Positions 11,298-49,198 of a stretch of DNA of 56,592 nucleotides are shown here, in pieces; within the stretch, counting starts at the first letter, position 1; each line of letters starts with the position of its first letter. This stretch comes from a virus (taxonomy: Duplodnaviria > Caudoviricetes). Position numbers and translations under genes: made by a program. The notes under the pieces were generated by a model. That model ran no database searches and had not been told where the DNA came from. It worked only from the letters and a program-made list of their open reading frames with translations. The stretch spans positions 1 through 56,592 of IMG/VR virus record IMGVR_UViG_3300035666_000025; one strand, 5' to 3'.

Positions 11298-14200
11298 CTA
11301 TCGTTTCTTCAAATAATCCAACGGGCTTTTAAGTGCCGGTGGCGGCAAATCTTTAGGCTTGTTGGATCTTGCACGCGCACGAATGGCATGCATCATTTCG
11401 TAAAGCTTTTCGGTTCCTGCCTTTGTTGAGCCATTACCCAGCGCTGCAACCACATCGGCAGGAAAGACAAATTCACCATCGGCTAGCATGGCCGGAATGT
11501 CGTCAGACTGACCATCTCCCGGACCAGAGACATGCTTGCCTTCACGGAAGTCTTCGCGTGACAAGCCGCCCTTGGCATACATGAACTGCGGGTTCATAAC
11601 TTGACCGCCAGCCTGGTACATTGGCTCATCCTCTTCGCCAGTATCCGTGCCACCAAATATTTCATCCAGTGATGGCTCTTGGCCATAAGTATAATAGGGC
11701 AGACGCATTTCTTCCTCGATGGGTTCTGGCGCTATAGGCGCTTGTGGCAAATCTTGCACTTCTGCAAAGTATTGAGCAAGTGGATTAATGTATTTCTCGC
11801 GGGTCTGCGAGCCTAGCAGTTTCCCGCCAAGCCAGTCCTCTGGACTAGGTATTCCCATACCGCTACCAAGCAAGAATCCTGCGCCGCTTGCAGCCGGTCC
11901 TACTGGTGGCGGTTTAGTTGTCTTGGTCGGCTCTGGTGTCGTTGTAATTGGTGGAGGTGTTATGTCAGTAGTAACAACTGGCGACCCGCTAGGAATCACA
12001 ACATCACCACCTGGGATCGTATCTTCGCCACCTGGAATCGTATCCTGACCGCCAGGGATCGTATCTTCTCCCTCGGTACTTGTGTTGGTCGTCGTACTCG
12101 TGTTCGTGTTGAGATCTGTCGTTACCGTCGTTGACTGGCCTGTTGTCAGATCGGTTTTCGTCTCGGTCTTGGTTGCCGTTGTCGGATCAACCGTCGTTAC
12201 CGTTTGTGTGTTTTGACTGATCTTGGTCGTGGTGGTGATATTGGTTGTCGTATCAGTCTCGGTCACAGTAGCGGTGTTAGTGTTAACCGTCGTGGTGACT
12301 GTGCTGCTCTGATCAGAAACAATTTGTGTGGTCGTGTTACCGGAGTTGGTGATGGTCGTCGTTGTGCCGTTGTTGGTATCAACAGCCACTGCCGTCGTTG
12401 TATTGCCAGATACCGCCGTGGTTGTAGTCACACCGCCTTCAGTAGCCGTGTTCACGTTTACATCCACGCCCGCCTTGGTTGCTGCATCAACAGCCGCGGT
12501 TGTGGCCGCATTCACATCTACGCCGCTTTTTGTTGCCGTGGCAATTGATGTGGCCACCGATGAAGTAGCCGTAGCATTAACGTCTGACGCCGCTTTCGTT
12601 GCAGCATTAATTGAACTTGTTACCGCACCACCGATGACAACCGTGGAATCCGCGCCTTGATCAAGTCCTGCTACGACTGCCGATGAGACTATCGTTCCGG
12701 TAGTGATGGACGGGTCGGTGCCCGTATTGATCCCCACCGTGATCGCTGAATTGATGACCGAGGACAGGTCTGCACCTGAGTCCAGTGCGCCAGTAATGAC
12801 TGCTGGCCCAATAGCCGTGATGGATTGCCCACTCTCTAGCGCCATATTCATTGAAGACGCAATGGCTGAGTTGGTGGCATCAGTCAAGCTGATACCCTTA
12901 GATGCTGCATCTTCAATCTGAACTGACACGTTAGAAGAAATCGCCGCCGGGTCTAACTTATCTGCCCCCGTGGCTTGCATGGTGCTACTCGTAGGGCCAC
13001 CATAAAGTGCGCCACCCGTCATGGCGGTCAACATATTCTTGGCATCAATCGAGCCACGCAAAGCCATGTCTACGCCAGCAGCAATAGAACCCTCTTCCAC
13101 GGCCTCTTGTGCCGACTCTTTAACTAAGGTCTTGCCAACCTCTTTACCCTGAGTAAGAACACCGCCTGCCACATCATCAGCGCTGCGTGACAATGCACCG
13201 GCAAGCTTAGAAACACCTGATGCGGCACCGGCTAGCGCTACTGTCGTGCCTGCAGCCACACCGGCAGCTTTTTGTGCGTTGGCGTGCGCGACTTCTTTTG
13301 ATGCACCTTTGGCAAGTTGTGACTCGAACTCTTGGTTGTAGGCTGCACCACCATTCTCTATGGCAGAAGCCACAGTCTCTTTAACCCAGAACCCACCAGG
13401 CAAACCTTTAAGCGTTGCAAGCTGCAAAACCTCTTCAACTACCTCGCTGCCTACAGTAGCGCCAAAGGCTTTGGGATTGTTGTAAACAGTTGATGCTAGG
13501 TTGCCAATGTTTGTTGCCAAGTCTTTTAGGCTTGTTGAGTCACCAACCTTGGATATGGCGCTATTGATATCAGCCTTGCCTTTGGTGACATCCGCACCCT
13601 CTGCTGCAGTGGCAGCGCTGGCAATCATGTTGGCCTTGTCCATGACCGCACGGCCAGCGTCAGTAAAGCCTAAAGCGTTTAACACACCACCGATGGAATT
13701 GGCACCAAAGCTCGAAACACCTTGTGCTGCCACGCTGCCAAGGAACGAATCAACACGAGGTGTCGCCATGGTCACCGGGCCTTTAGTTGAAGGCAGGTCC
13801 TTCCCTTCACTGTTGACCGATGATGGCTGGATCAATGTGCCGCTCTTGCCTTCAGCTATCAGGGCGTTGACGGCATTGACATACTTGGCATAGTCCGCAT
13901 CACTTGTGCCACCGCCAGCCTGAATGAAGGCTGCACGGTTATGCATGCCGTTGGGCGCAACATAAGGCGTGCCAAGGTCTGCAGTAGTTGGTTTTGTAGC
14001 GCCAGTTAAGTCAGGGCGCTCCTGTGCAGTGGCCGTGCTGTAATCCTTGCCCTGCCAGGTAAACGTAGCGTTAGCGCCAAGCTTATCTCTAGCAGTGGCA
14101 TAAGCTTCGTTAAAGGTAGGCTTGCCTGCAATCTCTGCGCGAATGTCGGGTAGGTTTGCAGCACGCTCCTGCGCACTTTCGCCGGCAGTTATCTTCTGGC

Positions 14201-16007
14201 CTTCAATGACGCCACGACCTTTGACAACTAAGTCATTAATTGCCTTGTCGTTATAGCCGGCAGAGGTTAACGCGCTACGCAGTTGCTCTTCTGTGCCTGT
14301 ACCACTTAGAAAGTCTCTGTAGGCTGACTGAACGCTTAACTTGTTCTCAAGCTTGATGGCGTTTTGTGCATCAACGCTATTAAGCAAATTGTTTGCTGCC
14401 GACTCAGTAAGCCCTGCAGCCATCATCTCTGTCAGAGCGGTTTGCCGGTCTACGCCAGGAGTGCCAAATTCTGGATCAACCTGCGAATAGCGACCCATGA
14501 CATCAGCCGCTACGCGTTGTTGATTAAGCTGCTGGTCTGCTTGCTTGGCATAACGCTCGGCATCAACAGCACTAAATCCTAAGCGTTGCAACTGACTGAC
14601 AAGGCCCTCTCTGCTTAAGTCATTACCGGGACCAACATAATCAGCAAGCGCTTGATTGGCATTTTGAATGCGTTGCTGTTGAGCGATCTGCTCATCTTCA
14701 GCCGATATAGGGCTAAGGGCACCCAAGCCTTGTGGCGAAGCATTTGCCTCTAAAAAGGCTGCGCGATCTTGTGGCGACTGAGCCGTTACGTTTCTTCCTG
14801 TCAAACCACTTTGAATGCCGGCCTGTGCAAGTGACGTTAATGCAGCCAACTCATTACCACTGATGGCTTGCAAGCCAGCCGTAACAAGTTTGCCAGCAGT
14901 AGCCTTGTCTAGGCCTGTTTCTGCCGCCAAGGTATCCGTTGCAAAACTTGTGCCCACGCTTGTAGCCAATGCAGCAGGATCGAGTTTGCCTGTCGTAATA
15001 AGCTGGGTAATCGCATTCTTGCCAGCGCTTGCTAATTCTGCCGGCAACATCGAGCCAACCTGCGCTCCTGCCCAGCCCGCGCCAGCGCTTAATACGGCAC
15101 CTTTTAATGCGTCAACAGGATCTGCGCCAGTAGCGACTTGCAAGCCAAAATTTAAGACGCCTGAACCAAGCGCACCTGCTGCTGCGCCCGTAGCACCTAA
15201 AGCACTTCCAATGGCCTGGCCAACGCCGGGAAGCAGCAGACCCAGCGCCATTCCCGTGACAGGATTAGTTAAAAATTTTTTGAAGAGACTTGGCCCTTCG
15301 ACGCCAACACCTTGTCTAATTTGCCCTGTAGCGGCGTCTAATTCTTCATAACGGTATTGCTTTGGTCCCAGGCCAGACTGATCATCCGCCAACCGCATTA
15401 AAGAATTTCCGCCAGCCGTGACGGTCCAATCTTTACCGTTAAATGTAACCGGCGTATACCTTGTTTCGTTACCGCCTTCTAAGTTTTCAACATACCTTAC
15501 CGATTCAATCGCTTTTTGCGCAGGCGTGAGTGCTGCAAGTCGATCCTGCTCTTGCATCCATTGATCACGCAACTGAGACGCAGGAATGATCTGAAACCCT
15601 TCATCACCTCGATCAACATACTTGTCAGTAAACGTCGGTATTTGAACGTCACGATAAGTATTTATTGATGGCTTTGCAGTTTCTGCATCAATTGCGTCTT
15701 GCTGCGTGTTATCACGACTTGTGTAATCGTTTGCACCAAGAAGACCGCCGCTAACCGTATCATTACCTGCGGCACCCGTTACCGTAGAAAGTGCTGACAA
15801 GCCGCTCTGAACTGGATAGTAATCACCAAGTGCTTTGCCTGTAGCACGTCGAATATCATCTTCCGATACGCCATATTGCTGCATAGCAGCACGCGCTGCT
15901 GCTTCATCAGGATTGCCAGCAAAGAAGTTGATAATGTTCTGGTTCATTTGATCCAGACCAATACCGCCTGGTGCTGTTGCGTATTGGTAGGCTGCTGACG
16001 TGCTCAT
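11298..16007 (-). CDS. Large internal virion protein (1569 aa) with Thr-rich tract and C-terminal GPGDGQSDDIPAMLADGEFV domain
   Basis: Long ORF in ejection module; glycine-zipper segments; YQAGG and YAKGG motifs. Confidence 0.75.
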   Translation of the reverse strand: MSTSAAYQYATAPGGIGLDQMNQNIINFFAGNPDEAAARAAMQQYGVSEDDIRRATGKALGDYYPVQSGLSALSTVTGAAGNDTVSGGLLGANDYTSRDNTQQDAIDAETAKPSINTYRDVQIPTFTDKYVDRGDEGFQIIPASQLRDQWMQEQDRLAALTPAQKAIESVRYVENLEGGNETRYTPVTFNGKDWTVTAGGNSLMRLADDQSGLGPKQYRYEELDAATGQIRQGVGVEGPSLFKKFLTNPVTGMALGLLLPGVGQAIGSALGATGAAAGALGSGVLNFGLQVATGADPVDALKGAVLSAGAGWAGAQVGSMLPAELASAGKNAITQLITTGKLDPAALATSVGTSFATDTLAAETGLDKATAGKLVTAGLQAISGNELAALTSLAQAGIQSGLTGRNVTAQSPQDRAAFLEANASPQGLGALSPISAEDEQIAQQQRIQNANQALADYVGPGNDLSREGLVSQLQRLGFSAVDAERYAKQADQQLNQQRVAADVMGRYSQVDPEFGTPGVDRQTALTEMMAAGLTESAANNLLNSVDAQNAIKLENKLSVQSAYRDFLSGTGTEEQLRSALTSAGYNDKAINDLVVKGRGVIEGQKITAGESAQERAANLPDIRAEIAGKPTFNEAYATARDKLGANATFTWQGKDYSTATAQERPDLTGATKPTTADLGTPYVAPNGMHNRAAFIQAGGGTSDADYAKYVNAVNALIAEGKSGTLIQPSSVNSEGKDLPSTKGPVTMATPRVDSFLGSVAAQGVSSFGANSIGGVLNALGFTDAGRAVMDKANMIASAATAAEGADVTKGKADINSAISKVGDSTSLKDLATNIGNLASTVYNNPKAFGATVGSEVVEEVLQLATLKGLPGGFWVKETVASAIENGGAAYNQEFESQLAKGASKEVAHANAQKAAGVAAGTTVALAGAASGVSKLAGALSRSADDVAGGVLTQGKEVGKTLVKESAQEAVEEGSIAAGVDMALRGSIDAKNMLTAMTGGALYGGPTSSTMQATGADKLDPAAISSNVSVQIEDAASKGISLTDATNSAIASSMNMALESGQSITAIGPAVITGALDSGADLSSVINSAITVGINTGTDPSITTGTIVSSAVVAGLDQGADSTVVIGGAVTSSINAATKAASDVNATATSSVATSIATATKSGVDVNAATTAAVDAATKAGVDVNVNTATEGGVTTTTAVSGNTTTAVAVDTNNGTTTTITNSGNTTTQIVSDQSSTVTTTVNTNTATVTETDTTTNITTTTKISQNTQTVTTVDPTTATKTETKTDLTTGQSTTVTTDLNTNTSTTTNTSTEGEDTIPGGQDTIPGGEDTIPGGDVVIPSGSPVVTTDITPPPITTTPEPTKTTKPPPVGPAASGAGFLLGSGMGIPSPEDWLGGKLLGSQTREKYINPLAQYFAEVQDLPQAPIAPEPIEEEMRLPYYTYGQEPSLDEIFGGTDTGEEDEPMYQAGGQVMNPQFMYAKGGLSREDFREGKHVSGPGDGQSDDIPAMLADGEFVFPADVVAALGNGSTKAGTEKLYEMMHAIRARARSNKPKDLPPPALKSPLDYLKKR
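12004..12070 (-). repeat. Three 21-bp coding repeats ([EQ]DTIPGG)
   Basis: EDTIPGG-QDTIPGG-EDTIPGG in translation. Confidence 0.8.
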
Positions 16008-16255
16008 TACACCGTCCTTGAATTAACCGCGCCAACCACTGCCGCGGCCCAATCCTGCCAGTTATCAAAGCCATAAGGCTCTGGTATAGCTTCATTGGCA
16101 AACACGTCGATAGCCTTCAAGCCAGCAGCCCAAGACTTCCATTCAACACCAGGACCTGGGATCTGCAACTGCTGGCCAGCATAAGCCTCGCACATGAGCG
16201 CCGCCCATGAATCAAAGTCTTGATACCGCGGGTCATAAACGACAGCCAAACTCAT
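16007..16255 (-). CDS. Conserved small structural-module protein
   Basis: W..WA...PEPYGFDNWQDWA motif; coupled overlaps. Confidence 0.7.
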   Translation of the reverse strand: MSLAVVYDPRYQDFDSWAALMCEAYAGQQLQIPGPGVEWKSWAAGLKAIDVFANEAIPEPYGFDNWQDWAAAVVGAVNSRTV

Positions 16256-19892: not shown

Positions 19893-19894
19893 GA

Positions 19895-20530
19895 TTAGCT
19901 ATCCACAACGACGGCTTGGCGATCAGCAACTCGAAGCTTGTTCTCTATGACTAGCGACTCAAGGATCGATGTGAGTTCTTCACGATAAGCCTGGGCCTTA
20001 TCGTAGTTCTTCAAGAACATCGACGCCTCTACCAGAGAGCCATACAGTAGTGCTTGTGGTGCGTAGATCGTGAACCAGTTGGTTTGATTGGCAGAATCCA
20101 AAGGCTGAATCCGCTCGTAGTACAACACCTCAAAGTTATACGCTGCATCAGGTGTCGGCGCGATCAGCCAGTGCGTGTAGTCGTAATCAGCGTAAAACTT
20201 GGGCACATCCTGCTCTGCAGGATCGGGCCAATACTCACGCAGGTATTCCATGGTGCGCAGCAAGACGGGATAGCGCCTGCCATCCACTGTGATGTTCATG
20301 CTGACTGTCTTATGCCACCGTGCCGGCTTATCAATGATATTGCTACCAATGACCATGGCACTTGTTTGCACGGTAAGAATGCCAAGGATCTTGAGCCTGG
20401 CAGCAAGCTTTTGCTCGGTCAGCCCAATGAAGGTAGGAATCTTATCCAGGGTGGCGGTGTCAGTGCGCTCTAGGTACTGAGCGATATCAGTCACTAGATT
20501 GTTGTAGGTCATTACATAGGCGGCTGTCAT
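19895..20530 (-). CDS. Tail adaptor (tubular protein A-like)
   Basis: MTY..L...I..YLER...IPTFI..PTPD..Y...LLYGSL.EA pattern. Confidence 0.75.
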   Translation of the reverse strand: MTAAYVMTYNNLVTDIAQYLERTDTATLDKIPTFIGLTEQKLAARLKILGILTVQTSAMVIGSNIIDKPARWHKTVSMNITVDGRRYPVLLRTMEYLREYWPDPAEQDVPKFYADYDYTHWLIAPTPDAAYNFEVLYYERIQPLDSANQTNWFTIYAPQALLYGSLVEASMFLKNYDKAQAYREELTSILESLVIENKLRVADRQAVVVDS

Positions 20531-20531
20531 G

Positions 20532-28732: not shown

Positions 28733-28765
28733 GTCTATCTCCGCGAAACGGTGAGTTGCATCATT

Positions 28766-34529: not shown

Positions 34530-34934
34530 CTACCACCCCGGACAATTCCAACGGCGCATGGATGCGCGTGCTCGTGAGCCTTTCTCGCTCTTCTCTGCTA
34601 CTGGACCCATCCTAGCGCAAAACGAGTCTCTCCGAGGCCCTCCCTGGGGCTGTGGAGCCTTTAGGTTTGATCCTGTTTCTCGGTTGTACTTGGCTCTGCC
34701 TTTGGCCGTGAGACCCGCGCCACGATCCGCTGGTAGCTTCTCACCACGGCCAATCGCAAGGCTCGGACCGCCGTTCTTAAGCTGTTCAGGAAGCTTTGCA
34801 TAAGATCGCCCTTTCACGTTGGATTGGGTGTATTCAGCCGCTACATCAGGACTGATGCCCACCTTCTTGGCAAACTTGGGATTGTTCTCTACCGCTTTCA
34901 TGAGCCGAAACTGCGCTTTCGACTTCGCTGGCAT
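34530..34934 (-). CDS. Small basic protein (DUF6321-like)
   Basis: GLTAKGRAKYN...NLKAP...RR.SFCARM...RW.C; MPAKS.AQ.RLM N-terminus. Confidence 0.7.
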   Translation of the reverse strand: MPAKSKAQFRLMKAVENNPKFAKKVGISPDVAAEYTQSNVKGRSYAKLPEQLKNGGPSLAIGRGEKLPADRGAGLTAKGRAKYNRETGSNLKAPQPQGGPRRDSFCARMGPVAEKSEKGSRARASMRRWNCPGW

Positions 34935-35766: not shown

Positions 35767-36768
35767 TTAGCACGCGCCGCCGGCTCGCTTTTTGGCTGGT
35801 GGTGGCGATACCGTTACAGACTTCTCAGTCTCGGTTACCGCACCTTGGCCACGCAACTTGTCACGAAGCTTGCCGCCAAGCTCCTTAAAGATGCCAATCG
35901 GATTCAACGCTTCCTCAAGATCTCGACTCGCCTTGGCTGCAGTTGCCTGTGGATCTTTTACGGGAGCAACATTCTTTTTAAGCATGTCACGCTCGTAATT
36001 GCTAACAGCACCTGCAGCACCGCCATCGTTAAACTTGACTTTGCCACCCTTCTTGAAGGTGCCCGATTGACGATCATTCGACACAGCCGCCGAAGCTGGC
36101 TTCTTGGGGTAGGCTACGGGTTTTCCTGAATCAACAAGACCCCCCGTAGCGTAGCCCTTTTTTGCGGCACCACCTTTCTTGTAACCGCCTTGACCCATGA
36201 TGACGCCGCCGGTTTTGTAACCGCCAGGCTTGCCCATCTTGACATCGCCAGTAGGACCCTTGGCTTTATCAACATGCGCTGTATCCATCTTGGTCTTGAC
36301 GTACTCTTTAGCGCCACGCTCAGACTCTGCTACCGGAAGAATGCCACTCTTGGGCACTGCGCCGCCCTTTTTGTAGCCACCCTGGCCCATTACCACACCG
36401 CCGGTTTTTAGGCCTTTGTGAGCCTTAGATGCAGGCATAGAGGCATGCTTCTTAAGCTTGGCCTCGGTGCCCATCATCTTCTTCATTTCGGCTGCGTGCT
36501 CTGCCTTGGTCTCGCCACCTTCCTTCATCATGGGGCGATTCATCATCGCCGCACGACGTGCTGCCATAGAAGGGCGACGTGGTGCCATTGCAGGTGCCAT
36601 ACCACCGCGGGAGCCAGGAGACGGCATTGCTGCCAAGCCGCCCATGACACCGCCATTCATCATCTTCGTTGGTTTCTTAGGTGTTTTGACCATGCCACCT
36701 TTCTTCAGCTTTAACTCCACTGAAGGCTCGGTGGTCATCATCTTCACCATCGGCTTAAACTGACCCAT
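35767..36768 (-). CDS. Lys/Gly/Met-rich low-complexity protein with about 11 xxxGG motifs
   Basis: LKKGG, MKEGG, LKTGG, YKKGG, YATGG, FKKGG, FNDGG; RBS AAGGA. Confidence 0.8.
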   Translation of the reverse strand: MGQFKPMVKMMTTEPSVELKLKKGGMVKTPKKPTKMMNGGVMGGLAAMPSPGSRGGMAPAMAPRRPSMAARRAAMMNRPMMKEGGETKAEHAAEMKKMMGTEAKLKKHASMPASKAHKGLKTGGVVMGQGGYKKGGAVPKSGILPVAESERGAKEYVKTKMDTAHVDKAKGPTGDVKMGKPGGYKTGGVIMGQGGYKKGGAAKKGYATGGLVDSGKPVAYPKKPASAAVSNDRQSGTFKKGGKVKFNDGGAAGAVSNYERDMLKKNVAPVKDPQATAAKASRDLEEALNPIGIFKELGGKLRDKLRGQGAVTETEKSVTVSPPPAKKRAGGAC

Positions 36769-39444: not shown

Positions 39445-39993
39445 TTAGCCCTCGAATACCGGGGGCCGGTTAATGGGGGTTTTATCGAGACTGTCGAGTC
39501 CTTGCCCTTCCGTCTGCAATAGCGTCCTGCCTTGACTATCCCGTGCGCCTTGAAGATTGTCTAACTGCACTTTGATCTTCTCAGCCTCTTCACGAGGTTT
39601 GTCGTAATGCAACCGTGTCATTACCTTCTGATACACGTCCATCGGTAACTTAAACAGCAGCATCTCATTACAGGAGATATGCCCAACGTGTTCGCCCGCC
39701 TTGACCCGATAGTTCTCAAACCCTGGTAACTCATCGGCTAGCACCGGAACGTACCCAAGTCGGATTCTCTTATCAATGGTGTCGTAACTGTTGGTTGTAG
39801 AAAGCCAGCAAAGATGCCATCCCGGAATATCCGGGACTTTCGGCAGCGCCGATTGTGTCCACTCATCACTCCACATTTTGTCAATGTCCTGTGCTGAGAG
39901 GAACTGCTCCTGCACGGCTTGGCGCACTACGTCTTCGCTTGCGCGTGACTCGCGGCCACCGGCAGTGAGGGATTTCTTTAAGCGTGATTCCAT
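39445..39993 (-). CDS. Conserved head-module protein
   Basis: P.IPGWH.CW...R.RLGY.PV...MLL.K.P. Confidence 0.7.
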   Translation of the reverse strand: MESRLKKSLTAGGRESRASEDVVRQAVQEQFLSAQDIDKMWSDEWTQSALPKVPDIPGWHLCWLSTTNSYDTIDKRIRLGYVPVLADELPGFENYRVKAGEHVGHISCNEMLLFKLPMDVYQKVMTRLHYDKPREEAEKIKVQLDNLQGARDSQGRTLLQTEGQGLDSLDKTPINRPPVFEG

Positions 39994-40002
39994 GTCCTAC
40001 TC

Positions 40003-40941
40003 CTAGCTTCGTTGTTGTGTAGCGTACTGGCGGATGATCCGGTTTCTAGCCTTTTCATCGTCCCATAAACCAGCTTCCTTAATAGCTCTCACTTGCTCTG
40101 CTGAAAGCTCAAAGGATTTGCGACCACCTGCTGCCGCTGCTGACTCACGACCTGTACTTGCTTGCATAAAACGAGGCCTGTTTTTCGATGAGGAACCACC
40201 TTCCTGACTATTGTACCGATGAGGAACGTATTGGCGCAAGCGTCTGTCAAGTTCCATCCAATAATCCTCAGTGGCTGGGTCCCAGCCTTCTCGCGCTAAA
40301 TGCTCATCAACGTCTTTGGTAACTTTGCTGTCTAAGTCCTTGGCGTTAGGATCAAACCAAGGATTGCGCTGTTGCCACTCTTGCGCAAAGTTAGCGATCC
40401 TGGGATTAGGCAGTGACTGCTGCTGGCGGGGTTGAGCAACAGCCTTCTTAAGGTTCTGCAGATCCTCAAGCTTCTTGCGTGCATCAAACCACATCTCGTG
40501 CGCTTTGGTATGCCCGTCGCCGTCTTGCTCTGTATGAGCCTGCGACATCTTAATTTTGGCATATTCAACACTCGTCGCTGCTTGTCGAATCGCCTCGTCA
40601 ATCTGCGCTATTTCGCCTGCATGTGTCTTGCGCTCAATGATGGCCAGTCGCTGCAGTAACTCTTCGTTCTGGCGCTGCAGCATCGATAGTCGATGATCTT
40701 TCTCAATCTGATGCTGCTTGGCGGCATCGCGTTTAGCACGGCGGCGATTACGCTTGGCAGCACGAATTGCTTCCGTATCATCTTGATGGTCGTCATCTTC
40801 ATCATTGGCGGGGCCACCTTCTGCGGCTTGCACGGGTTCATTATCATCGACCTCTTCGCCCGTGTCGGGCATCTCAACGATAACGGAACCATCCTTCTCT
40901 TCCTTGATATCAAGGATCTCGTCTTTCTCTTCAGCGCTCAT
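40003..40941 (-). CDS. Capsid scaffolding protein (putative)
   Basis: Acidic N-terminus, coiled coil, W...NPWF, LS.EQ..A C-terminus. Confidence 0.7.
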   Translation of the reverse strand: MSAEEKDEILDIKEEKDGSVIVEMPDTGEEVDDNEPVQAAEGGPANDEDDDHQDDTEAIRAAKRNRRRAKRDAAKQHQIEKDHRLSMLQRQNEELLQRLAIIERKTHAGEIAQIDEAIRQAATSVEYAKIKMSQAHTEQDGDGHTKAHEMWFDARKKLEDLQNLKKAVAQPRQQQSLPNPRIANFAQEWQQRNPWFDPNAKDLDSKVTKDVDEHLAREGWDPATEDYWMELDRRLRQYVPHRYNSQEGGSSSKNRPRFMQASTGRESAAAAGGRKSFELSAEQVRAIKEAGLWDDEKARNRIIRQYATQQRS

Positions 40942-41381
40942 AGGAATGCCTTCGTTTCTAATGGGTTGCCCGTGATCTTGGCGATTACCTCATGATCGTT
41001 AATGATCATGAAAAGCGCCGGATCTTCACCTTGGTCTTCACCGGGAACTTTGACTTCCCAGCGATCACCGCCCCACTTAGGCACACGAATAAAGTCGCCT
41101 ACTCGGCACCACGCACCTTCAGGCCAAGGCTCCATCGAATCGCGCTTACGGAATGCCAGCGCTCCCATATCGACAACCTTGCCAATCTGCGTGTTCCACT
41201 TCTCTGTCTCTTTGGTCTCTTCAACTAGGACAATGCCTGCTTTGGTGGTTCTTTTCTTGGAGCGACGGATCTGTACCATCACACGGCCACCAAGAGGTTT
41301 TGCACCAGGATCTACGCTCGGAAATGCCCAAGCCATCTCAGCGTCGTCAGACGCTACTGGTTCATTCATATTCATCGTCAT
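40938..41381 (-). CDS. groES: GroES/Cpn10-like co-chaperonin
   Basis: KPLGGRVMV...TKAGIVL...GKVV.MG...WC.VGD...IND.EV. Confidence 0.85.
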   Translation of the reverse strand: MTMNMNEPVASDDAEMAWAFPSVDPGAKPLGGRVMVQIRRSKKRTTKAGIVLVEETKETEKWNTQIGKVVDMGALAFRKRDSMEPWPEGAWCRVGDFIRVPKWGGDRWEVKVPGEDQGEDPALFMIINDHEVIAKITGNPLETKAFL

Positions 41382-41547
41382 CTCTCATTAAGTCATCAAT
41401 GATGTCTAGCGCCTTCTTGAGGCCTAGATGTTCTCCGACCATGCGCTGATACGCCTCCCATGTCGCTGCGTTTCCCGCTGCAAGGGCAAGGCCTATTTCA
41501 GCCTGGCGTGTCTTTAATGCGCCGATCAGATCCGAAATGGTTTTCAC
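41362..41547 (-). CDS. Conserved small protein
   Basis: L..G.A..WE.YQRMVG...GL..A pattern. Confidence 0.75.
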   Translation of the reverse strand: MKTISDLIGALKTRQAEIGLALAAGNAATWEAYQRMVGEHLGLKKALDIIDDLMRDDDEYE

Positions 41548-41705
41548 TTTTTCTTAGGTGCTTGGCTCAGGCCTCCTTTGGCTTTGGGTTGCTGTTGCGT
41601 ACCCTTAGACTGCAGGCTTGTGCCGTCAAGGTTGGCTCCCATGGCGATGCGCTTGTGATACGGCACAGCTTCCATGTCTTTCAGGTTATTGGATGGTTGG
41701 GCCAC
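41544..41705 (-). CDS. Small basic protein (53 aa, not in ORF track)
   Basis: Read manually: GTG start, RBS GGAG, MAQPSNNLKDMEAVPYHKRIAMG...KAKGGLSQAPKKK*. Confidence 0.65.
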   Translation of the reverse strand: MAQPSNNLKDMEAVPYHKRIAMGANLDGTSLQSKGTQQQPKAKGGLSQAPKKK

Positions 41706-44253
41706 GATTCACTCCTAAGTTGCGTTGAGCTTCGTTCTGAAGCTTGATTGCAGTCTCATACTGCTCTGCTTGTAACTGCTCATCTCGCTGCGTCAGACGG
41801 GCAGTTTCAATCCTCTCCTTGGTCAGATTGTTTGTGGCGTTAAGCGCTACATCCAACTGATCCCTTGCTGCTGCGCGTTGCTGCTCTGCTTGCATGCGTG
41901 CCATGTCAATCTGGCTACGTTGCTGCATGTCAGCACCCTTGAGTTGCATCTCAGCCTGGTCGCGCTGGGCACGGCGTTGGGTCTCAGCCAGGCTGGTTTC
42001 TTTGAGCACCTGAGCCTCGGGCGGAAGTTGCGGCTGCGGTGTTAGCTGCTTCATAGCGTCTAGCAACTGCTGCACAAGCGGTAGGATCTGCGAGAAGGCC
42101 TGCTCACTGTCTTGCTTTACATGCTGCGAGACAAGCGCCAGCGTCTTATCGATCTCTGGCGTCATGCGCTGGTTCTGGTACTCATCCTCATCCAGCGGCT
42201 TACCACGCAACTTGTGCATGTAGCCCTGACTGCGGTTGAGATACCAAAGCACCATGTGCTGCTTGATGTGCTCCAGTGCCCGCGGCAGGTAAATGCTTGC
42301 CATGATGGGATTGCCACCAAATGCCGGGTTGAGCGCGAAATCCAAGTGCGATTGGATGTGCGCCAGGTGGTCTTGGTGCATGTAAGCGTAGCCATTCTGA
42401 CCTAGTGACATGGCCACGTTCTCATCGATGGCCGATAGCTCATTAGGCGAGGGCGTATTCTTGAGCAACTCGTTGTAGGCAGGGATTTTTAGCTGCTTTA
42501 GGAGTCTTTCTTCAACGGCACGGCGGTCATAGAGGTCTGGTGCCTTGTCCGAGCGGGCCAATACCGCCTGAATCTGGGCCATGCGCTGGGTTTCGCTGAA
42601 AATATGCGGGTCAGAGACCGGAACCACGTCACCATTACGCTCAAAATCCTCAAGCTCAATCTTTAGGTCTGCAACAACCTCGCCTTTGCGCATATCTTTG
42701 AGATACCAGCGGTTTAAGCGACCCAAAACCTTGAGCAAACGCGCCTGCGAGGAGTGCAAACGACTGTGGATAGCAGAAAACACCGCGGCACCCTGCTCAA
42801 TGAGGGCTTGTGTGGTGCCTACAGGCGCTTGTGCGTTCACATCGGCTATCTTTTCCTCAGCCGTGGTCACAACGCCCTTTGTAGCCTTGTCTAACCAGCC
42901 TAGAAGCTCGAATAACACTGCCGATGGAGGGTTGAACGGCATGGGCATCGCAAGCTTGCGTATGTCGTCTACGCCTGGTGCCGCTTCGATCTCTACGACT
43001 TGCGTAATATCAACCTGTTGCGACTGACCAGAGACCTTGGCCGACTTAAACTTGAGTAATGCAGGCGCATTATTGATGTGCGCGGCATCCAAAAGCGCCC
43101 GCAAGCTACCCGTAAGCGCTGCTGACAGGCCACCAATCAGGTGCGGCATGCCAATCGCGTAGGCACCACGCCACGGAATGAACTTGTACTCGATAACCCA
43201 ATCCAACTTGGTCATCGTTTCATCGCCATCTTCCCAATTTCTGTACAAACCAATGACTTCGTTGTCCAGTTTGTCAATCATCAAGATGTATGGGGCCATC
43301 TCGCCGTCAGTAACGCTGTCTTCTTCGACTTCGAGGTAGGTGTAGGTGTGGAAAACCGTGCGTAAACCGTCGTCATTCTCGTCGTACTTGCGGCCTTCAA
43401 TCTTGTTGTTGGCCTTTTCCGCGTGCGTCTCGTCCGGCTCCATCGTGGCGCGAATAATTGACACGTCTTTGTACATGCCCGAGTCAATGCGCTGCTTAAA
43501 TTCAAACTCCGTGATCTCGTGGATCTCGGTAGCACGCTGCGCAGTGTAGAAATTAGACGCGGCAAACGGTATCAGGACCTTATCGATGGGCAAAAACTCA
43601 GCGCAAGGACGCTTTCTGCGCTCGTCATACCAAAGTTTTAGGTACTGCGAGCCACCAAGCGGCAGTTGGGTGAGCAATTGCTCTTGCTCGTCCTTAAATT
43701 CTTCGATCTGCTCGGTTAACTGCCAGTTCATCCAGTCGCGTTTGCGCTCGGCACGCTCTGTTTTGTCCTTATCAACCTTGCCTAAGATCTTGGTTTTGAC
43801 CGGACCATCAGGCGGGAAGAGTTCTTTGATCGCACGCGAGGCAAAATCCACGCACGCTTCAGCCATGGCCGGGTGGACAACCTTGCTGGCACCCATGAAT
43901 GTCGCGCCGCCGGGCGCATCTTTACCCATGCCGGTACGCTTGAGACCCTCTTCGTACTGCTTATCGCGGTCTTCGCGTGCTTGCTTGTCCTTGTCGATCA
44001 GGTTGACATACCGCATAGCCAGCGCTGACAGCTTGATGCTGTCAATTTTCTCGGCTAGGTTCTCGTAAAAGTCTGGCGACTCGTCTGGACCCTTCAGATC
44101 GTCAAAGTGAACCCGCACGGAACCATCGGGAAGCTCTTCAAGCTCTGCCGATTCTTCAGGCAACTCAACCTCAAGACCCTCTTCTTGATCCTCTTCATCC
44201 TGCATGGGATCAATGTAGCGGCCATATTCCTGCTCAATGGGCATCTCAGGCAT
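41686..44253 (-). CDS. Portal protein (P22-like with C-terminal coiled coil)
   Basis: GAS.VVHP...ACVDF.SRA.KELFP..GPVKT; 855 aa; position after terminase module. Confidence 0.9.
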   Translation of the reverse strand: MPEMPIEQEYGRYIDPMQDEEDQEEGLEVELPEESAELEELPDGSVRVHFDDLKGPDESPDFYENLAEKIDSIKLSALAMRYVNLIDKDKQAREDRDKQYEEGLKRTGMGKDAPGGATFMGASKVVHPAMAEACVDFASRAIKELFPPDGPVKTKILGKVDKDKTERAERKRDWMNWQLTEQIEEFKDEQEQLLTQLPLGGSQYLKLWYDERRKRPCAEFLPIDKVLIPFAASNFYTAQRATEIHEITEFEFKQRIDSGMYKDVSIIRATMEPDETHAEKANNKIEGRKYDENDDGLRTVFHTYTYLEVEEDSVTDGEMAPYILMIDKLDNEVIGLYRNWEDGDETMTKLDWVIEYKFIPWRGAYAIGMPHLIGGLSAALTGSLRALLDAAHINNAPALLKFKSAKVSGQSQQVDITQVVEIEAAPGVDDIRKLAMPMPFNPPSAVLFELLGWLDKATKGVVTTAEEKIADVNAQAPVGTTQALIEQGAAVFSAIHSRLHSSQARLLKVLGRLNRWYLKDMRKGEVVADLKIELEDFERNGDVVPVSDPHIFSETQRMAQIQAVLARSDKAPDLYDRRAVEERLLKQLKIPAYNELLKNTPSPNELSAIDENVAMSLGQNGYAYMHQDHLAHIQSHLDFALNPAFGGNPIMASIYLPRALEHIKQHMVLWYLNRSQGYMHKLRGKPLDEDEYQNQRMTPEIDKTLALVSQHVKQDSEQAFSQILPLVQQLLDAMKQLTPQPQLPPEAQVLKETSLAETQRRAQRDQAEMQLKGADMQQRSQIDMARMQAEQQRAAARDQLDVALNATNNLTKERIETARLTQRDEQLQAEQYETAIKLQNEAQRNLGVNRGPTIQ

Positions 44254-47200
44254 ATTTCTTTCCTTTATTTACTGCTTTAGGCAACTCTTTTGCCATCTTG
44301 ACTACCATGGCCTGCACATCGGGGTTGTCAGTAAACCTTACCGTCCCGCCTTTTGCCTTAAGAAGACCAGGCTCGTCTTTTTTTAGTGGATTGAAAGCGG
44401 CAAAACGAGAGCGAACCTGCTTCGTATCAAATGGAATGACTACTCGGTGCTGTGCTCCACCGCCTTTACCGCCAGCATCTACGATGCCATCAAAGCCTAG
44501 CTTGCGAAGCTCTGCAGTGACTTTGTCTGGAATAGACGTCCAAACGTATGAGTTTTTGCCTTCAGCCATGTCCTTTTCAAGCTCTGCAACCCACTCTTTG
44601 GGGGTGAACCTGACATTTTTTGCCCATTGATCAGGGCCATACGCTTGCTTGCGAGTTCTGTCTTTTGCAAAAGCTTGTTTTAAGGCTGGAATGACTCTGC
44701 TCTCAATCACTTCAGCGTCTGTAGTCGTAAGCGGGTTGTTAAGCCTAGCCTTGCCCGTCAAAACGCCCTGCGCACTTGACCATGGAGCATTCTTTTGCGA
44801 GATTGGAAACGGGAAGCCTGCAAGTTCAAATACCTTGGCAAGCTGCTCCTCGTTGTTGTAAAGCGTTCCGCTGTCATGCCACATAATCCTGAGCGCTGTA
44901 AGCGGATTACCTTTAGCTTCGCGCTGAAGATAGTAATCAATCGTTTTGGGGTCCATGATCGAGCCGCCCATTCCCTCAGGGTGCAACACCAAGTCACCCG
45001 TTGCTTCTTGAGGGTTGGCGTATCCAATACGCTTAACCTTGGAAATAATTTCTTGCTGCTTTTCTCTTGGCAGGAAATAAAACGCCTTTTCGACAGGAAT
45101 ATCTTGATTGGATCTGTAGCCAAGGTTTTTGGCGCTAACCGTAAAATAATCAGCAACATTCCCTTCGTCTTGTGCAAGCCTTGACGTATCGCGCTTGCTA
45201 GTCGCATAGGTTGATGCCATTTGTTTGCTTTCAGTGCCAAACGGCATCGGACCTGATGTTGCCCTGCGCGGGTCTAACGCACCCTTCTCTAGCAAGCGAT
45301 CCAAGCGTTCTGTGCCATGGTAAAAATCTTGATAACCCATGGCTGCAGCACGCACATCTGGCGTGTTATCTGGCGGCAACCCTAGACCACCTTGCTCAAC
45401 AGGTAATGCGGCTGCACGCTGCGCTTCTAGCAGGGCTTTGTCTTGCGGCGCTTTGAAATTTTTAGCTGACGCAATATTCCCAACACGAGGGCTTTCCTCA
45501 ACCTTTACGGCTGGTTCTGACACGCTGACACTTGTCTTTTGCGGCGCGTCCTCTTTTGGAGCCTGCAAACGTAAGCGTTCTTGTTCCGCAGCCTTTCGTG
45601 CTAAAGCTTCGCGTCTAAATGCTGCCGTAGGAATGGCTTTGTAGTCATTTGCTAGTGACGCCTCTTGCGCTACATCACCTATTACATCAACCGCCTTGCC
45701 TAACTTCGACGCTTTCCCTATCGTCGCTGGTAAACCAATCATGGGAATCATGGATACGGCCTGACCGATCTTCTCTAAATCAGTGCCGCCAGCGCCAGAC
45801 ATGTACCCGCTTGCAAGTTGCGATGCGGCTGATACGGGAGCGCTCTCCTTAATGGCTTGCAGAGCCTTCTCAATATCTTCCCTGCCCTCACCAAAACCTT
45901 TGGCTTGCATGATGCTGCGGGGCATATCGCCACCACCTGACATGCGTACAACCATCGCTTGCACGTCGGGATTGCCGGTAAATCTCACCTTGCCTCCCTT
46001 GGCGTAAGGTTGCACTGGCGTCTTGCCAAACATGACAACGCTAGGCTTGGCTAGTCTTGGGCTTAAGTACCCGGCATAGCCATAGTCACGAATAAGCCGC
46101 TCTAGTGCGTTGGTAGCCTCAGCAGGCTGTGCTAATCCTTTGTTTGACGTGGATGTCATCGGTATGCGCGTGGTTTCGCGTGCAAGCATTTGCAGTTGCA
46201 GCGGATCTGCTGCCAAGTCATACAAGTTTTCGCCCATCGCACGGTACTTGTGCGGGCCAAGGCCAACCTCTGGCTCCATGTTCTGGCCGGCATAGAAGTA
46301 GGTCCGCGGCGATATAGCCCCATGCAATCCGAGTCTTGCTGCTTCCTCACCCTTGATGCCCGTGCCGTAGAACGACGGGTCAGTCTCGGTCAATCCTGCC
46401 TGCTTGCTGTAGTGCAGCATCGGTGTCGAGACTGTCGTTCCTTCCATGGGTTTAATCAGGGGGCGCAGATAGTCTGGCATTTCGCCAGCGTAGGACGTGC
46501 TTAAGAACTCTGGCGGCAGGAGCAAAGGCTTTTGCGGCGCAAACTGAAACGTCTCGTAAGCTTTGGCGATGTCCTTATCAATCTGCTTAACTTGCTCTGT
46601 TTGGCCACGGCGGTTGGCCTCGTAGCGCAGCGATTGCAACTCGTTGATGGTGCGCTTTAATGCGGCGTTAAGCGGCGTGTAGTTGACTGTGCTGTTCTGG
46701 CCTCGTGTCTCGGTACTCATAGCCAGGCGTGCCAGCGGCGAGTACATCTGACTGTGTGCAGCCCAAGCAATCTCCTCGCCCTTGGGACCGAACTCGTTGC
46801 CGTGAATAGCATGGCCGAAGAAGTCATGCACAGCGCGAAACTTCTCGTTCTCATTCAGTCCCGTCTTGGGATCAACATCCTTCAGGAAGGGGTGCTCATC
46901 ACCGCCCTGGAAGACGTAAAGGTGCTTGTTGCCGTATACGTCCTGCAGCATTTGCTTGCTGTTGCGGTAGTTGCCTTCACCTGCTCGGTGATAAGACAGG
47001 CTAACTGGCAAGCGCTTGAACTGCTCGTCAGTCTCCTTGGCCATTTGGCGGTATGCGGCTACCAGTAACTCGTCGTAGTTGGTTGCGCCAGACTGCTCGA
47101 TGACCTCGGGCATTTGCGTGGCGTACTGGCGGAAGATCTCTTGCTTGTAGCCGGGATCATCCGTGGTGGCCAGCATGAAGGTGCGGCCAATCGGTGCCTG

Positions 47201-49198
47201 CTTGAGGATGGAGCTTTCAGGCATGTCTGGCAACTCGTAAGGCTTGCCAGTGGTCTCCTGCGTGTAAGTGCTTGCGGCCTGACGAACAAAGTTCGCCGGG
47301 TCGCTCATCGCTTGCTTGACTGCCTCATCCGTAGTTGGTTGCGAAACATCGCTTCCAGTTCGTCCTGGGGCAACTGCTTCGTCCCGTACTCTTTCGACAA
47401 TGCCTCGACCCTCCCCTGCAGCCGCTTGAGAACGGCTAGGGCGGACTCGGTAGAACGGTCCTTCTGTGGTTGTTTCATAGGTGACTCCTTGGTCTGCCAT
47501 TGTGCTAGGCATAACTTGTCTTGGCGCTACCCCTTGTAGCGGTTTTGCCAACATTCCCTCGCCGCGCATCGCCTGATCAACGGGCCTTAACATTTCCTTA
47601 CCGGCAGTTTTTGCCGCTTGCCTGAGAGCGCCGGCAACACCCGTAGTCGGTGGCAGCATGGCCATTTGGGGCAAGAACGGTGGCAGCTTGAGGTCTGGTA
47701 TGTCCTCTAGCACGTTTGCGACTGCTTCAAGGTTCTCGATACCCTTCTCAGTCTGTGGCAAGCGAAGGTTCTCGGTAATGAATCCTTGCGCTGCTTCGCC
47801 AGCACGCTGGCGTGGTGTCGGATCTCTTGGGTCGCCGCTCTTGATCGCTTCCTTAACGAAGGTGCCAACGCCTACCGCGGGTGACGCTAAGGCACGGGCA
47901 ACGATAGGCGCACCAGTCAGCAGCACGTCCAGCCCGCCAGCAACTTGCGGTGCCACGCCCTCAATGTCTTGCAGGATGTTGCCTTGGCCATAGCCGGGTA
48001 GCGCACTGACGCCACGCTTGGGCGTCTTGCCCATGAACCTAGCCGTGGGGTCGCCACCGTCTTGCATGTGGACAGGGCCGCCTGCGGCCATCTCTGGCGT
48101 GCCATTGATCTCTAACATCTTGATGGATTCTTCTTCACCAGGGAAGACAACGAAGTTTGATGTGCCTTTGCCAGTGCCACGCGATCCTTGATCAAAATAA
48201 CGGATACCAGGAACGCCTAATTCCCTCATGTGCTCTGCAAATTCCTGCGGTTTAAGAGCGGCTCTTGCAATCTCAGATCCGAGCGGGTCTTTTTTCCCGT
48301 AAAGATCCATTGCCATATCACGAAGCGCATATTCGCTTTTATTAATAGCTTCCTGCACTGCTTTTGGCTGCTGACTTAGTGGCTTGTCCCAATCAAGCAT
48401 TTGGGCAATCTTTTCGTCGGGGATGTCTACTTTGTATAAAGCACCAAGATTTTTTTCGTATCCAAATTTAACGTCACGCCCAATTTCATCCAACCTTTTG
48501 AGCGCTTCAGGATTATTTTTTGCCGCTTGTTTAGCGTAATAAACTGTGTTGTGTGGAAACTGACCAGCATCACGCTTCCCTCGCTCAAGATACTTAAGAA
48601 CATCCAGATCTGTATCAGTAAGGTCTTGGCCCGCGATCTTGGTTTTTCCAAATTGCAAATAAGGCTGCTCAAAATTAGAAAGATCAGCTTGATATTTTTT
48701 TGCTACTTTAGGGTCCTCAGCAAAATACAGCCCATGACCAAAAGCCTGAGCGCCTTCGCCTGTGCCGATCTTGCTTGCATCAAACTTCTTGAACTTGTGC
48801 GGCGAACCATGGTAAGCAATCAGTTCTGCAATGCCTGGCACCTGCCCGACCTTAGACATCGCTGAAGCGTAAGCAAAGGGAGACAGTGCGCCAGCAATGT
48901 CGCCGAGCACGCTTGTAGCCTCACCTGTGCGGTAGGCTGAGGCAAGCCTCTCTGCTTGCGGGTCCATCACGCTGTAGCTTGGGTCCATCCCAAGATAGCC
49001 CTGAATAGCTTGGCGTGCAGGCTTGGCAGCAGCAAGCACTGCGGACTTGTCTACCTGCTCAGTGGCCCGCTTAACACCGGGTGGCAACTTACCGCCTTTA
49101 TCCATGTGGACGACACCGCCGTCCTTCAAGCCAAGCCGCTCACGCAGGCTAACCGTCCCGCCGTCCTTTAACCCAAGCCTTGCCCGTAAGTTGCTCAT
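44246..49198 (-). CDS. Polyvalent effector protein: ADP-ribosyltransferase-like domains plus HDxxGH zincin-like domain
   Basis: YHGSPH.F..FD..KIGTGEG.QAFG.GLYFAE; FRAVHDFFGH...GEE.AW; LHYS...RTYFY; FYHGT...RSRFAAFNP. Confidence 0.75.
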   Translation of the reverse strand: MSNLRARLGLKDGGTVSLRERLGLKDGGVVHMDKGGKLPPGVKRATEQVDKSAVLAAAKPARQAIQGYLGMDPSYSVMDPQAERLASAYRTGEATSVLGDIAGALSPFAYASAMSKVGQVPGIAELIAYHGSPHKFKKFDASKIGTGEGAQAFGHGLYFAEDPKVAKKYQADLSNFEQPYLQFGKTKIAGQDLTDTDLDVLKYLERGKRDAGQFPHNTVYYAKQAAKNNPEALKRLDEIGRDVKFGYEKNLGALYKVDIPDEKIAQMLDWDKPLSQQPKAVQEAINKSEYALRDMAMDLYGKKDPLGSEIARAALKPQEFAEHMRELGVPGIRYFDQGSRGTGKGTSNFVVFPGEEESIKMLEINGTPEMAAGGPVHMQDGGDPTARFMGKTPKRGVSALPGYGQGNILQDIEGVAPQVAGGLDVLLTGAPIVARALASPAVGVGTFVKEAIKSGDPRDPTPRQRAGEAAQGFITENLRLPQTEKGIENLEAVANVLEDIPDLKLPPFLPQMAMLPPTTGVAGALRQAAKTAGKEMLRPVDQAMRGEGMLAKPLQGVAPRQVMPSTMADQGVTYETTTEGPFYRVRPSRSQAAAGEGRGIVERVRDEAVAPGRTGSDVSQPTTDEAVKQAMSDPANFVRQAASTYTQETTGKPYELPDMPESSILKQAPIGRTFMLATTDDPGYKQEIFRQYATQMPEVIEQSGATNYDELLVAAYRQMAKETDEQFKRLPVSLSYHRAGEGNYRNSKQMLQDVYGNKHLYVFQGGDEHPFLKDVDPKTGLNENEKFRAVHDFFGHAIHGNEFGPKGEEIAWAAHSQMYSPLARLAMSTETRGQNSTVNYTPLNAALKRTINELQSLRYEANRRGQTEQVKQIDKDIAKAYETFQFAPQKPLLLPPEFLSTSYAGEMPDYLRPLIKPMEGTTVSTPMLHYSKQAGLTETDPSFYGTGIKGEEAARLGLHGAISPRTYFYAGQNMEPEVGLGPHKYRAMGENLYDLAADPLQLQMLARETTRIPMTSTSNKGLAQPAEATNALERLIRDYGYAGYLSPRLAKPSVVMFGKTPVQPYAKGGKVRFTGNPDVQAMVVRMSGGGDMPRSIMQAKGFGEGREDIEKALQAIKESAPVSAASQLASGYMSGAGGTDLEKIGQAVSMIPMIGLPATIGKASKLGKAVDVIGDVAQEASLANDYKAIPTAAFRREALARKAAEQERLRLQAPKEDAPQKTSVSVSEPAVKVEESPRVGNIASAKNFKAPQDKALLEAQRAAALPVEQGGLGLPPDNTPDVRAAAMGYQDFYHGTERLDRLLEKGALDPRRATSGPMPFGTESKQMASTYATSKRDTSRLAQDEGNVADYFTVSAKNLGYRSNQDIPVEKAFYFLPREKQQEIISKVKRIGYANPQEATGDLVLHPEGMGGSIMDPKTIDYYLQREAKGNPLTALRIMWHDSGTLYNNEEQLAKVFELAGFPFPISQKNAPWSSAQGVLTGKARLNNPLTTTDAEVIESRVIPALKQAFAKDRTRKQAYGPDQWAKNVRFTPKEWVAELEKDMAEGKNSYVWTSIPDKVTAELRKLGFDGIVDAGGKGGGAQHRVVIPFDTKQVRSRFAAFNPLKKDEPGLLKAKGGTVRFTDNPDVQAMVVKMAKELPKAVNKGKKYA

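Follow-up and report, generated by a model that had tools for sequence, protein, structure and literature searches.

What does a short Gly-Gly peptide do when it recurs in several late proteins of one phage? The question is raised by the IMG/VR record IMGVR_UViG_3300035666_000025 of an uncultured virus (Caudoviricetes), a complete record of 56,592 bases that was analyzed over its whole length and is called the window below. The late genes lie on the minus strand, as do the cassettes and motif copies located below by window positions. The motif consists of hydrophobic-x-x-G-G, often with x-V next, and it sits in basic low-complexity stretches. The initial annotation had placed it in six late proteins and proposed a processing or packaging signal. 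We find a peptide that is selected at the protein level and that flanks each effector module of a polyvalent ART protein, at its leader, its inter-module junctions, and its C-terminal tail. Gene context suggests that the motif marks proteins that are internal to the virion or ejected. The signal part of the proposal thus stands, whereas cleavage at the motif is unsupported. Our reading, to which we give a probability of about 0.4, is that the GG motif serves proteins traveling with the DNA as a docking or cargo tag, much as the capsid targeting sequence (CTS) does in T4.

Enrichment and conservation of the GG motif

Every string listed in the initial annotation is present in the gene to which it was assigned. 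The basic 333-amino acid (aa) repeat protein of the head module (35767..36768; pI 10.2) carries 12 [FYLM]xxGG among its 17 GG sites, where about 11 had been estimated. The x-V extension follows about half of the copies, V being present in 5 of 8 in the 1650-aa polyvalent protein (44246..49198), 5 of 12 in the 333-aa protein, and 1 of 2 in a 1569-aa ejection-like or tape-measure-like protein (11298..16007). Enrichment was determined with composition-preserving shuffles, 2000 per protein. The 12 motifs of the 333-aa protein compare with 1.20 expected and were reached in 0 of 2000 shuffles, and the polyvalent protein has 7 against 2.50 expected (P = 0.0125), so composition does not explain the motif in these two proteins. 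Taken over its full length, the 1569-aa protein shows no enrichment (2 observed, 2.40 expected), and neither does any further window protein. Of the six late proteins in the initial annotation, the 333-aa and polyvalent proteins are enriched, and the scaffold-like and 41544-41705 proteins are probably not members.

A weight matrix was trained on 394 GG sites located upstream of a C-terminal module (described below) in other metagenomic proteins, with the window's own sites excluded. Across the 69 open reading frames (ORFs) of the window, matches above threshold occur in three proteins only: two in the 1569-aa protein, five in the 333-aa protein (0.21 expected), and two in the polyvalent protein (0.29 expected, P = 0.03). 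The matrix misses the LKDGG/MQDGG leader type of the polyvalent protein as well as LKNGG in 34530-34934, KAKGG in 41544-41705, and AAEGG in the scaffold-like protein. The motif logo reads [G/K]-[Y/M/L/F]-[K/A]-[K/T/x]-G-G-x-[V/A], a preference that is absent at GG sites of other proteins in the same loci. Motif flanks are basic, with charges of +2.85 and +1.01 per 21 aa compared to +2.19 and -0.01 for all tiles.

An IMG/VR portal search gave 176 relatives in 177 matched stretches, and 80 loci were kept. Plus-strand ORFs were called in these loci and matched to the window proteins. Thirty-five ORFs match the 333-aa protein, and its full-length homologues carry 10-16 motifs each, down to 33% identity. 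The motif is encoded in many nucleotide versions (13 of MQxGG, 10 of Y[AK]xGG, and 28 of [YF]KKGG). Because synonymous codons vary across the motif copies, the constraint is on the peptide.

These data largely refute the idea that the motif is a product of chance, arising from Gly/Lys-rich composition and recent tandem duplication, and we regard it as scarcely credible. The single copies in the scaffold-like and 41544-41705 proteins do look random, the 1569-aa protein is not enriched over its length, and the DNA of the 333-aa gene contains one duplication (50 nt, 76% identity) that bears three motifs. That duplication is the only one, and the 333-aa protein does not owe its motif copies to recent repetition of DNA. 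Chance also fails to account for the shuffle result, for the confinement of the independently trained matrix to three proteins, for conservation down to 33% identity, and for a motif density that is ten-fold higher upstream of the C-terminal module than elsewhere in the same proteins (2.99 versus 0.29 per 100 aa).

Motif cassettes bound the modules of the polyvalent protein

The polyvalent protein is encoded between the large terminase (49238-50668) and the portal (41686-44253) and consists of two ART-PolyVal-like domains and a central domain of unknown family. The Pfam scan (cut-off E <= 0.01) covered 38 of the 69 window ORFs, including nearly all late proteins; 16252-18534 and 41544-41705 were compared with PHROGs only, and two very small late ORFs and most early ORFs lie outside it. 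The first ART-PolyVal match spans aa126-185 (E 1.6e-9), the second copy is weak (E 0.0087), and the central part, aa713-841, matches phrog_3170. Several effector domains, the late context, and the gene order terminase, polyvalent protein, portal identify this protein as a polyvalent protein. Its motif copies are LKDGG (aa10 and aa24), MDKGG (aa32), MAAGG (aa370), MQDGG (aa378), YAKGG (aa1065), MSGGG (aa1086), and KAKGG (aa1614).

These copies occupy four places, at aa10-36, 370-382, 1065-1090, and 1614-1650. The N-terminal cassette (49091..49171) holds the two LKDGG copies and MDKGG. Junction cassette 1, MAAGGPVHMQDGG (aa370-382; 48053..48091), lies between the first ART module and the central module. 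Junction cassette 2, YAKGGKVRFTGNPDVQAMVVRMSGGG (aa1065-1090; 45929..46006), has a weight-matrix score of 8.9, and the C-terminal tail cassette, KAKGGTVRFTDNPDVQAMVVKM... (aa1614-1650; 44249..44359), scores 4.8. The tail cassette is an internal repeat of junction cassette 2, with AKGGxVRFTxNPDVQAMVV at aa1066-1087 (45941-46006) and at aa1615-1636 (44345-44410), so the tails of two modules are near-identical.

Comparison with mosaic relatives bears out the placement at domain boundaries that the initial annotation described. Polyvalent proteins in the relatives range from 461 to 2551 aa, and the motif occurs in them as two cassettes, a leader (...GLKDGGxV(x)MQDGG[DS]P...) and a tail (...PY[AK][KQ]GGxVR[IF][ST]xNxDxMxxEL...). 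Stand-alone modules have the leader at the N terminus and the tail at the C terminus; fused modules have a tail followed by a leader at the junction. The N-terminal leader of the window protein recurs at the N termini of separately encoded modules, homology to its central module begins at query aa371-378, straight after such a leader, and junction cassette 2 forms the end of stand-alone proteins. The relatives have 78 distinct ORFs of 100 aa or longer in the terminase-portal interval; the motif is found within the first 60 aa in 24 of them and within the last 60 aa in 24, compared to 62 and 27 of 639 other ORFs. The Fisher P values, 1.7e-6 for the first and 5.8e-12 for the last 60 aa, are generous and overstate the case, because of kinship among the ORFs and possibly spurious ORFs in the control set.

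Boundary sequences have been proposed as recombination joints in polymorphic toxins and phage modules, and the cassettes might likewise be linkers conserved mainly for effector-module swapping, while the peptide itself does nothing. In favor of this idea, the relatives are extensively mosaic, and their modules are exchanged at the cassettes. However, the synonymous sites within the motif codons are free to vary, which places the constraint on the peptide, and the motif is also present 10-16 times in a repeat protein that is not mosaic and before the C-terminal module in thousands of proteins. We consider recombination joints very unlikely as the explanation.

The 333-aa repeat protein and possible further members

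Alignment A3 of the 333-aa homologues shows that repeat units are gained and lost by insertion and deletion, while the N terminus, MGQFKPMVKM, is invariant. The protein matches no Pfam or PHROG family, and an ESM Atlas search returned only viral clusters without names. A profile search of the PDB with A3 gave nothing significant; fragments of the GroEL apical domain (E 0.64-0.92) and lysozyme (E 0.67) were the matches. In the E 0.64 alignment, which is not significant, the segment at 36500-36610 (…PSMAARRAAMMNRPMMKEGG) is paired with the apical-domain stretch …GFGDRRKAMLQDIATLTGG. A possible resemblance to the GroES mobile loop (GG followed by V-V-M or V-I-M) fits just 2-3 copies in the 333-aa protein. 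The protein ends in a Cys after its final GG (…KKRAGGAC; 35767-35772), and 21 of the 27 full-length homologues listed share a C-terminal Cys, which makes a disulfide or other covalent link possible. A small basic protein (20532-20924) with a weak DUF5872 match (E 4.3e-4, under Pfam's cut-off) holds KASGKGG and YKASGGGYKG, which are like the GGYKKGG units of the 333-aa protein without the hydrophobic residue at -3.

Two single sites are possible members of the motif family. The 134-aa basic protein (34530-34934) has LKNGG (34767..34781) between its N-terminal part and DUF6321 (aa71-129, E 1.8e-14). Homologues retain it as [LM]K[NDKE]GG at the domain junction; it is a single site and falls under the weight-matrix threshold. 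The 182-aa protein (39445-39993) has LTAGG at aa9-13 (39955..39969), a site absent from the initial list. Its N terminus, RLKKS[LI]x[AS]GGR, is invariant at R4, L5, K6, K7, G12, and R14 in 27 sequences, and residues 1-29 have a predicted local distance difference test (pLDDT) score below 50. Two sites on that list probably lie outside the family, judging from their sequences. KAKGG in the 53-aa protein (41544-41705; motif at 41571..41585) lacks a hydrophobic residue at -3, and several relatives have KGAPAP in place of its GG. AAEGG in the scaffold-like protein (40813..40827) also lacks it, stands in the acidic N-terminal region, and is conserved in relatives only in part, as AEGG. The N-terminal 70 aa of the scaffold-like protein (40732-40941) are strongly acidic, with a mean net charge of -14.5 in 39 homologues.

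The motif precedes an orphan C-terminal module in ejection-like proteins

The 1569-aa protein is encoded upstream of ejection-protein and SLT transglycosylase genes; its neighbors are a match to phrog_4287, 'DNA ejection protein' (10293-11288), and the transglycosylase (7382-8746). It matches no Pfam or PHROG family itself. A long Thr/Asn-rich stretch in it is followed by a triple repeat, TIPGG[QED]DTIPGG (12006-12062), and similar Thr-rich tracts occur in homologues. The motif pair YQAGG (aa1464) and YAKGG (aa1477) lies at 11565..11618, just before GPGDGQSDDIPAMLADGEFV at aa1495. There begins an orphan C-terminal module, GPGDGQSDDIPAMLADGEFVFPADVV...LGNGSTKAG...helix (aa1495-1569; 11301..11525), with the consensus GPGxGxSDDIPAxLxDGEFV, called the SDD module below.

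The module is widespread. The last 130 aa of the protein matched 3448 of 4234 candidates at E <= 0.001; among the best 120 of these matches identity is 57-100%, and the N-terminal parts are variable (collagen repeats and others). The matched C-terminal part is covered by no Pfam family. When the last 190 aa were searched exhaustively with HMMER, 13,148 cluster-50 representatives matched at E <= 0.001, with 2475 at 1e-10 and 221 at 1e-30, and among the 150 matches listed the match is nearly always C-terminal. By these sequence counts, the module is one of the larger uncharacterized phage sequence families met in this analysis. GxGxGxSD[DS][IM] is present in 240 of 241 homologues examined, and all 240 carry at least one GG motif in the 70 aa upstream (1 in 62, 2 in 117, 3 in 45, 4 in 10, and 5 in 6 proteins).

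The module was found in 5 of 5 near-complete relatives searched and in 52 of 50,697 phage records by translated search. Cultured carriers include 29 Arthrobacter siphophages, in which it lies within the tape measure protein, 7 Pseudomonas phages of the F116 group, 4 Pelagibacter, 4 Caulobacter, and 2 Planktothrix phages. GG directly precedes GPGxGxSD in Auxilium (...KKAGGGPVFGPGSGTSDDIPAML...), F116 (...LAEGGRVTGPGTGTSDDIKA...), and KcrB (...MARGGYAVKGPGTGRSDSIKANLSDGEYV...), where the protein C terminus is ...RYMDGGRV. The tape measure protein gp16 of the mycobacteriophage Douge has two copies, GGFLSGPGTGRSDSMLARVSNGEFI, with a weak profile match (E 1.3). KcrB lacks a homologue of the 333-aa protein, and its terminase and portal genes have no polyvalent protein gene between them. 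Motif and module paired in cis are thus the widespread arrangement, and free copies on cargo are a peculiarity of the window's group. In MW202545.1, the protein encoded at 10833-12071 beside the module-bearing protein ends in a long Cys/Ser repeat run (CCSCCCSCCC…).

An AlphaFold2 monomer of the module alone has low confidence (mean pLDDT 61) and no strands. Profile searches of the PDB gave nothing significant with alignment A1 (Douge gp16, E 1.3; an M16 peptidase in the variable part, E 0.84) or with alignment A4 (CooT, E 0.83-1.1). Co-folding of the module (A1 103-190) with the central motif region of the 333-aa protein (A3 105-215) gave a score of 0.00 and a mark of 0.32, which speaks neither for nor against an interaction.

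Three assignments for these elements were rejected. A LexA/S24-like Ser-Lys autoprotease does not fit the module: the Lys of STKAG is absent from the Auxilium and Douge copies, half-copies without the Ser occur in MW202545.1 and F116, Pfam gives no match, and the model has no strands. Conservation of the module extends to the Ser of SDD but, in distant copies, to no lysine. RTX calcium-binding repeats are tandem nonapeptides, GGxGxDxUx; the motif logo has no G-x-D after GG, and no Pfam RTX family was matched. The polyvalent tail cassette (…SDNPDxM…) was also not accepted as homologous to SDDIPAM of the module, since hhalign aligned 8 columns around GG with E 0.13.

The constant association in cis raises an ejection-side explanation. 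The GG would be the turn of a small beta-hairpin, structurally part of the SDD module and of similar repeats and unrelated to loading; after exit through the tail it would act as a nucleus of refolding or oligomerization or as an envelope anchor, or else the basic arms would hold DNA. The motif does immediately precede GPGxGxSD in tape measure proteins and unrelated podophages (Auxilium, F116, KcrB, and Douge gp16), and all 240 module proteins carry it in cis. The lack of a confident fold for the isolated module is expected if it folds on assembly, the spacing of conserved residues would fit a two-residue GG turn, and the motif flanks are basic. The explanation does not account for cassettes that bound every exchangeable effector module or for copies at the termini of cargo genes, and the failed alignment of the tail cassette with the module profile argues against a common element. 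The structure paper on Douge, in the sections available to us, models gp16 at residues 1658-1699 only (PMC13033339), so the module and its GG element are seen in no structure. We hold an ejection-side element to be improbable as the whole explanation.

A further reading makes the GG motif a ligand and the GPGxGxSDD..GEFV module its receptor, a plug-in and protease-free way to load cargo via the ejection protein. The pair would act between chains in tape measure and ejection proteins and build the ejected conduit. Within the window's group of uncultured podophages, which is abundant, the ligand would have spread in free copies to exchangeable effector modules and to a hub protein with 12 arms, and cargo bearing them would travel with the ejection protein, first into the head and then into the cell. 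We think it quite unlikely that this scheme holds as stated.

Search for a protease that cuts at GG

Maturation cleavage would offer another role: a phage or host protease would cut at or beside GG, freeing effector modules, trimming propeptides, and fragmenting the 333-aa protein, as in viral polyproteins. GG sites are cut by adenain, ULP-type, and C39 peptidases. The placement at module junctions and termini suits this idea, as do the gene boundaries of split relatives, which fall just past the C-tail cassette. In T4, gp21 strips the targeting peptides from Alt and the internal proteins (PMC9026906, in the text available to us), and Iyer et al. predict processing of polyvalent proteins (PMC5512222, likewise in the available text).

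The protein families of the window do not support cleavage. None of the 38 scanned window proteins matched a Pfam peptidase family, and no peptidase domain was found within the polyvalent protein. The sole PHROG 'peptidase' match is weak (34936-35724, E 0.0048), and homologues of that protein occur in 7 loci, compared to 35 for the 333-aa protein. The 182-aa protein at 39445-39993 had been put forward as the reader of the motif. It is highly conserved (73% mean column identity, 27 sequences), but its AlphaFold2 model (mean pLDDT 68) had 0 Foldseek matches in the PDB at E <= 0.001, an ESM Atlas search gave only viral clusters without names, and the 182-aa protein has a conserved LxxGG of its own, in an N-terminal segment modeled with low confidence. 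These data give no support to it as a protease or as a reader. The head module contains a separate scaffold-like protein, which also counts against cleavage. The adenain consensus is (M/I/L)-X-G-G|X or (M/I/L)-X-G-X|G, cut by a C5 cysteine protease in the virion. The window motif has its hydrophobic residue three places before GG rather than two, one place off this consensus, and no C5 family match was found. A C39 double-glycine leader is N-terminal, 15-30 aa long, ends in GG, and has a C39 ABC transporter nearby; it was rejected because most copies here are internal or C-terminal and no C39 peptidase or ABC exporter was found among the scanned proteins. Stand-alone proteins in the relatives run 2-30 aa past the last GG and start 9-40 aa ahead of the first. 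We consider maturation cleavage unlikely, although it could coexist with docking, as it does in T4, and a host enzyme, for example, might do the cutting.

The motif as a proposed docking or cargo tag

The reading that we prefer, a docking or cargo tag, requires no cleavage at the tag. In T4, variable basic cargo is loaded by means of CTS peptides, and the packaged ADP-ribosyltransferase Alt carries a propeptide at each end (PMC9026906); for phage polyvalent proteins, packaging and injection have been predicted (PMC5512222), both according to the portions available to us. T4 removes its peptides with gp21, and no such protease is recognized here, which favors a tag that docks. With a separate scaffold-like protein and no recognized protease in the head module, loading by binding would be needed. 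The tag would recruit proteins into the procapsid, or hold them together for ejection, through a conserved virion component. The tag could be read by the SDD module, by the strongly acidic N terminus of the scaffold-like protein, or by the inside of the capsid, and the 333-aa protein may act as a many-armed hub or filler.

Several points weigh against this reading. The binding partner of the GG motif consists of candidates only, and gene position is the basis for placing the 333-aa and polyvalent proteins in the virion. The LKDGG and MQDGG leader type might be a signal separate from the YAKGG type, since the weight matrix detects only the latter. In the siphophage Auxilium, the motif and SDD module belong to a tape measure protein, that is, to the tail rather than the head, and a purely capsid-directed tag leaves such copies unexplained. 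In KcrB, motifs flank the module, but cargo rich in the motif is missing. The tape-measure copies argue for a role of at least the cis pair in the ejected conduit and not in the head, which makes an ejection-side role a serious rival to a docking tag.

The loading of ejection proteins and effectors into the heads of short-tailed phages is poorly understood outside T4. A portable tag on exchangeable effector modules would, if true, explain how a group of phages shuffles its injected arsenal, and it would provide a handle for loading foreign proteins into phage particles.

Neighboring late genes

MW202545.1 is the closest deposited relative of the window; over 63% of a 6.4-kb probe, its nucleotide identity is 70.7%. 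More distant matches are four Caulobacter phages. The late order begins with the small terminase (50655-51200) and continues through the large terminase, polyvalent, and portal genes to two small ORFs (41544-41705 and 41362-41547), a GroES-like protein (40938-41381; Cpn10, E 1.3e-6), the scaffold-like protein (40003-40941), the 182-aa protein, a 202-aa protein (38822-39430), the major capsid protein (37891-38808), a 346-aa Gly-rich protein (36811-37851), and the 333-aa protein. Adaptor-like, fiber, and tail genes follow downstream, and the ejection block (7382-16007) comprises the 1569-aa protein, the 'DNA ejection protein' match, and the SLT transglycosylase. The GroES-like gene lies inside the head module and has 67 matching ORFs across the 80 relative loci. 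Two proteins resemble the SU10 adaptor, 19895-20572 (E 1.1e-26) and 33459-34529 (E 8.9e-6); the latter also has a weak F5/8 type C match (E 3.2e-5, under Pfam's cut-off). Sugar-modifying genes are clustered in the middle of the late operon (22493-31471), with several glycosyltransferases (GT2, GT25, and DXD type), a sulfotransferase with TPR, an APS-kinase-like P-loop protein, a methyltransferase fusion, and an RCC1-repeat protein. They may act on the virion or host surface.

Comparison with known systems

We found no description of the motif or the module in the main texts of the full-text literature, and the PhiGT1 paper has no analysis of internal virion proteins. The sites of adenain, ULP/deubiquitinase-type, and C39 peptidases resemble the motif in having Gly-Gly with an upstream hydrophobic residue in linkers of virion or exported proteins. 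They differ in that adenain has its hydrophobic residue at P4, where that of the window motif would be P5, and in that no C5, C48, or C39 peptidase was found in the scanned window proteins. Cleavage here is hypothetical. Small motifs of tape measure proteins are comparable because the SDD module and GG motif occur within the tape measure proteins of Arthrobacter phages and Douge, but the SDD module is not a known lysin motif and has no Pfam family. The module connects podophage ejection proteins with siphophage tape measure proteins.

The polyvalent protein resembles those that Iyer et al. 2017 describe from phages and conjugative elements in being a multi-domain ART-PolyVal effector beside terminase and portal with a mosaic architecture (PMC5512222, in the text available to us). 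It differs from what that text describes as usual, since neither a MuF/portal-fusion anchor nor an MPTase peptidase was found in it. The words 'linker', 'glycine', and 'low-complexity' occur 0 times each in the available text, which describes no GG cassettes.

The closest precedent is T4, and no sequence relation is claimed. The T4 CTS, an N-terminal peptide of about 10 aa, attaches to the scaffolding core and is cut off by gp21, the prohead protease. The polyvalent protein and the stand-alone modules have a leader in common at their N termini; the window motif is also internal and C-terminal, is centered on GG, is repeated up to 16 times per protein, and has no recognized protease; no prohead protease that would remove it was found in the head module (38 proteins scanned; 39445-39993 without a fold match). 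The likeness is that in T4, as far as the available text describes it, short terminal peptides are common to otherwise unrelated, mostly basic, and variable cargo proteins that are packaged in the head and injected, and that one of these is an ADP-ribosyltransferase with special sequences at both ends (PMC9026906).

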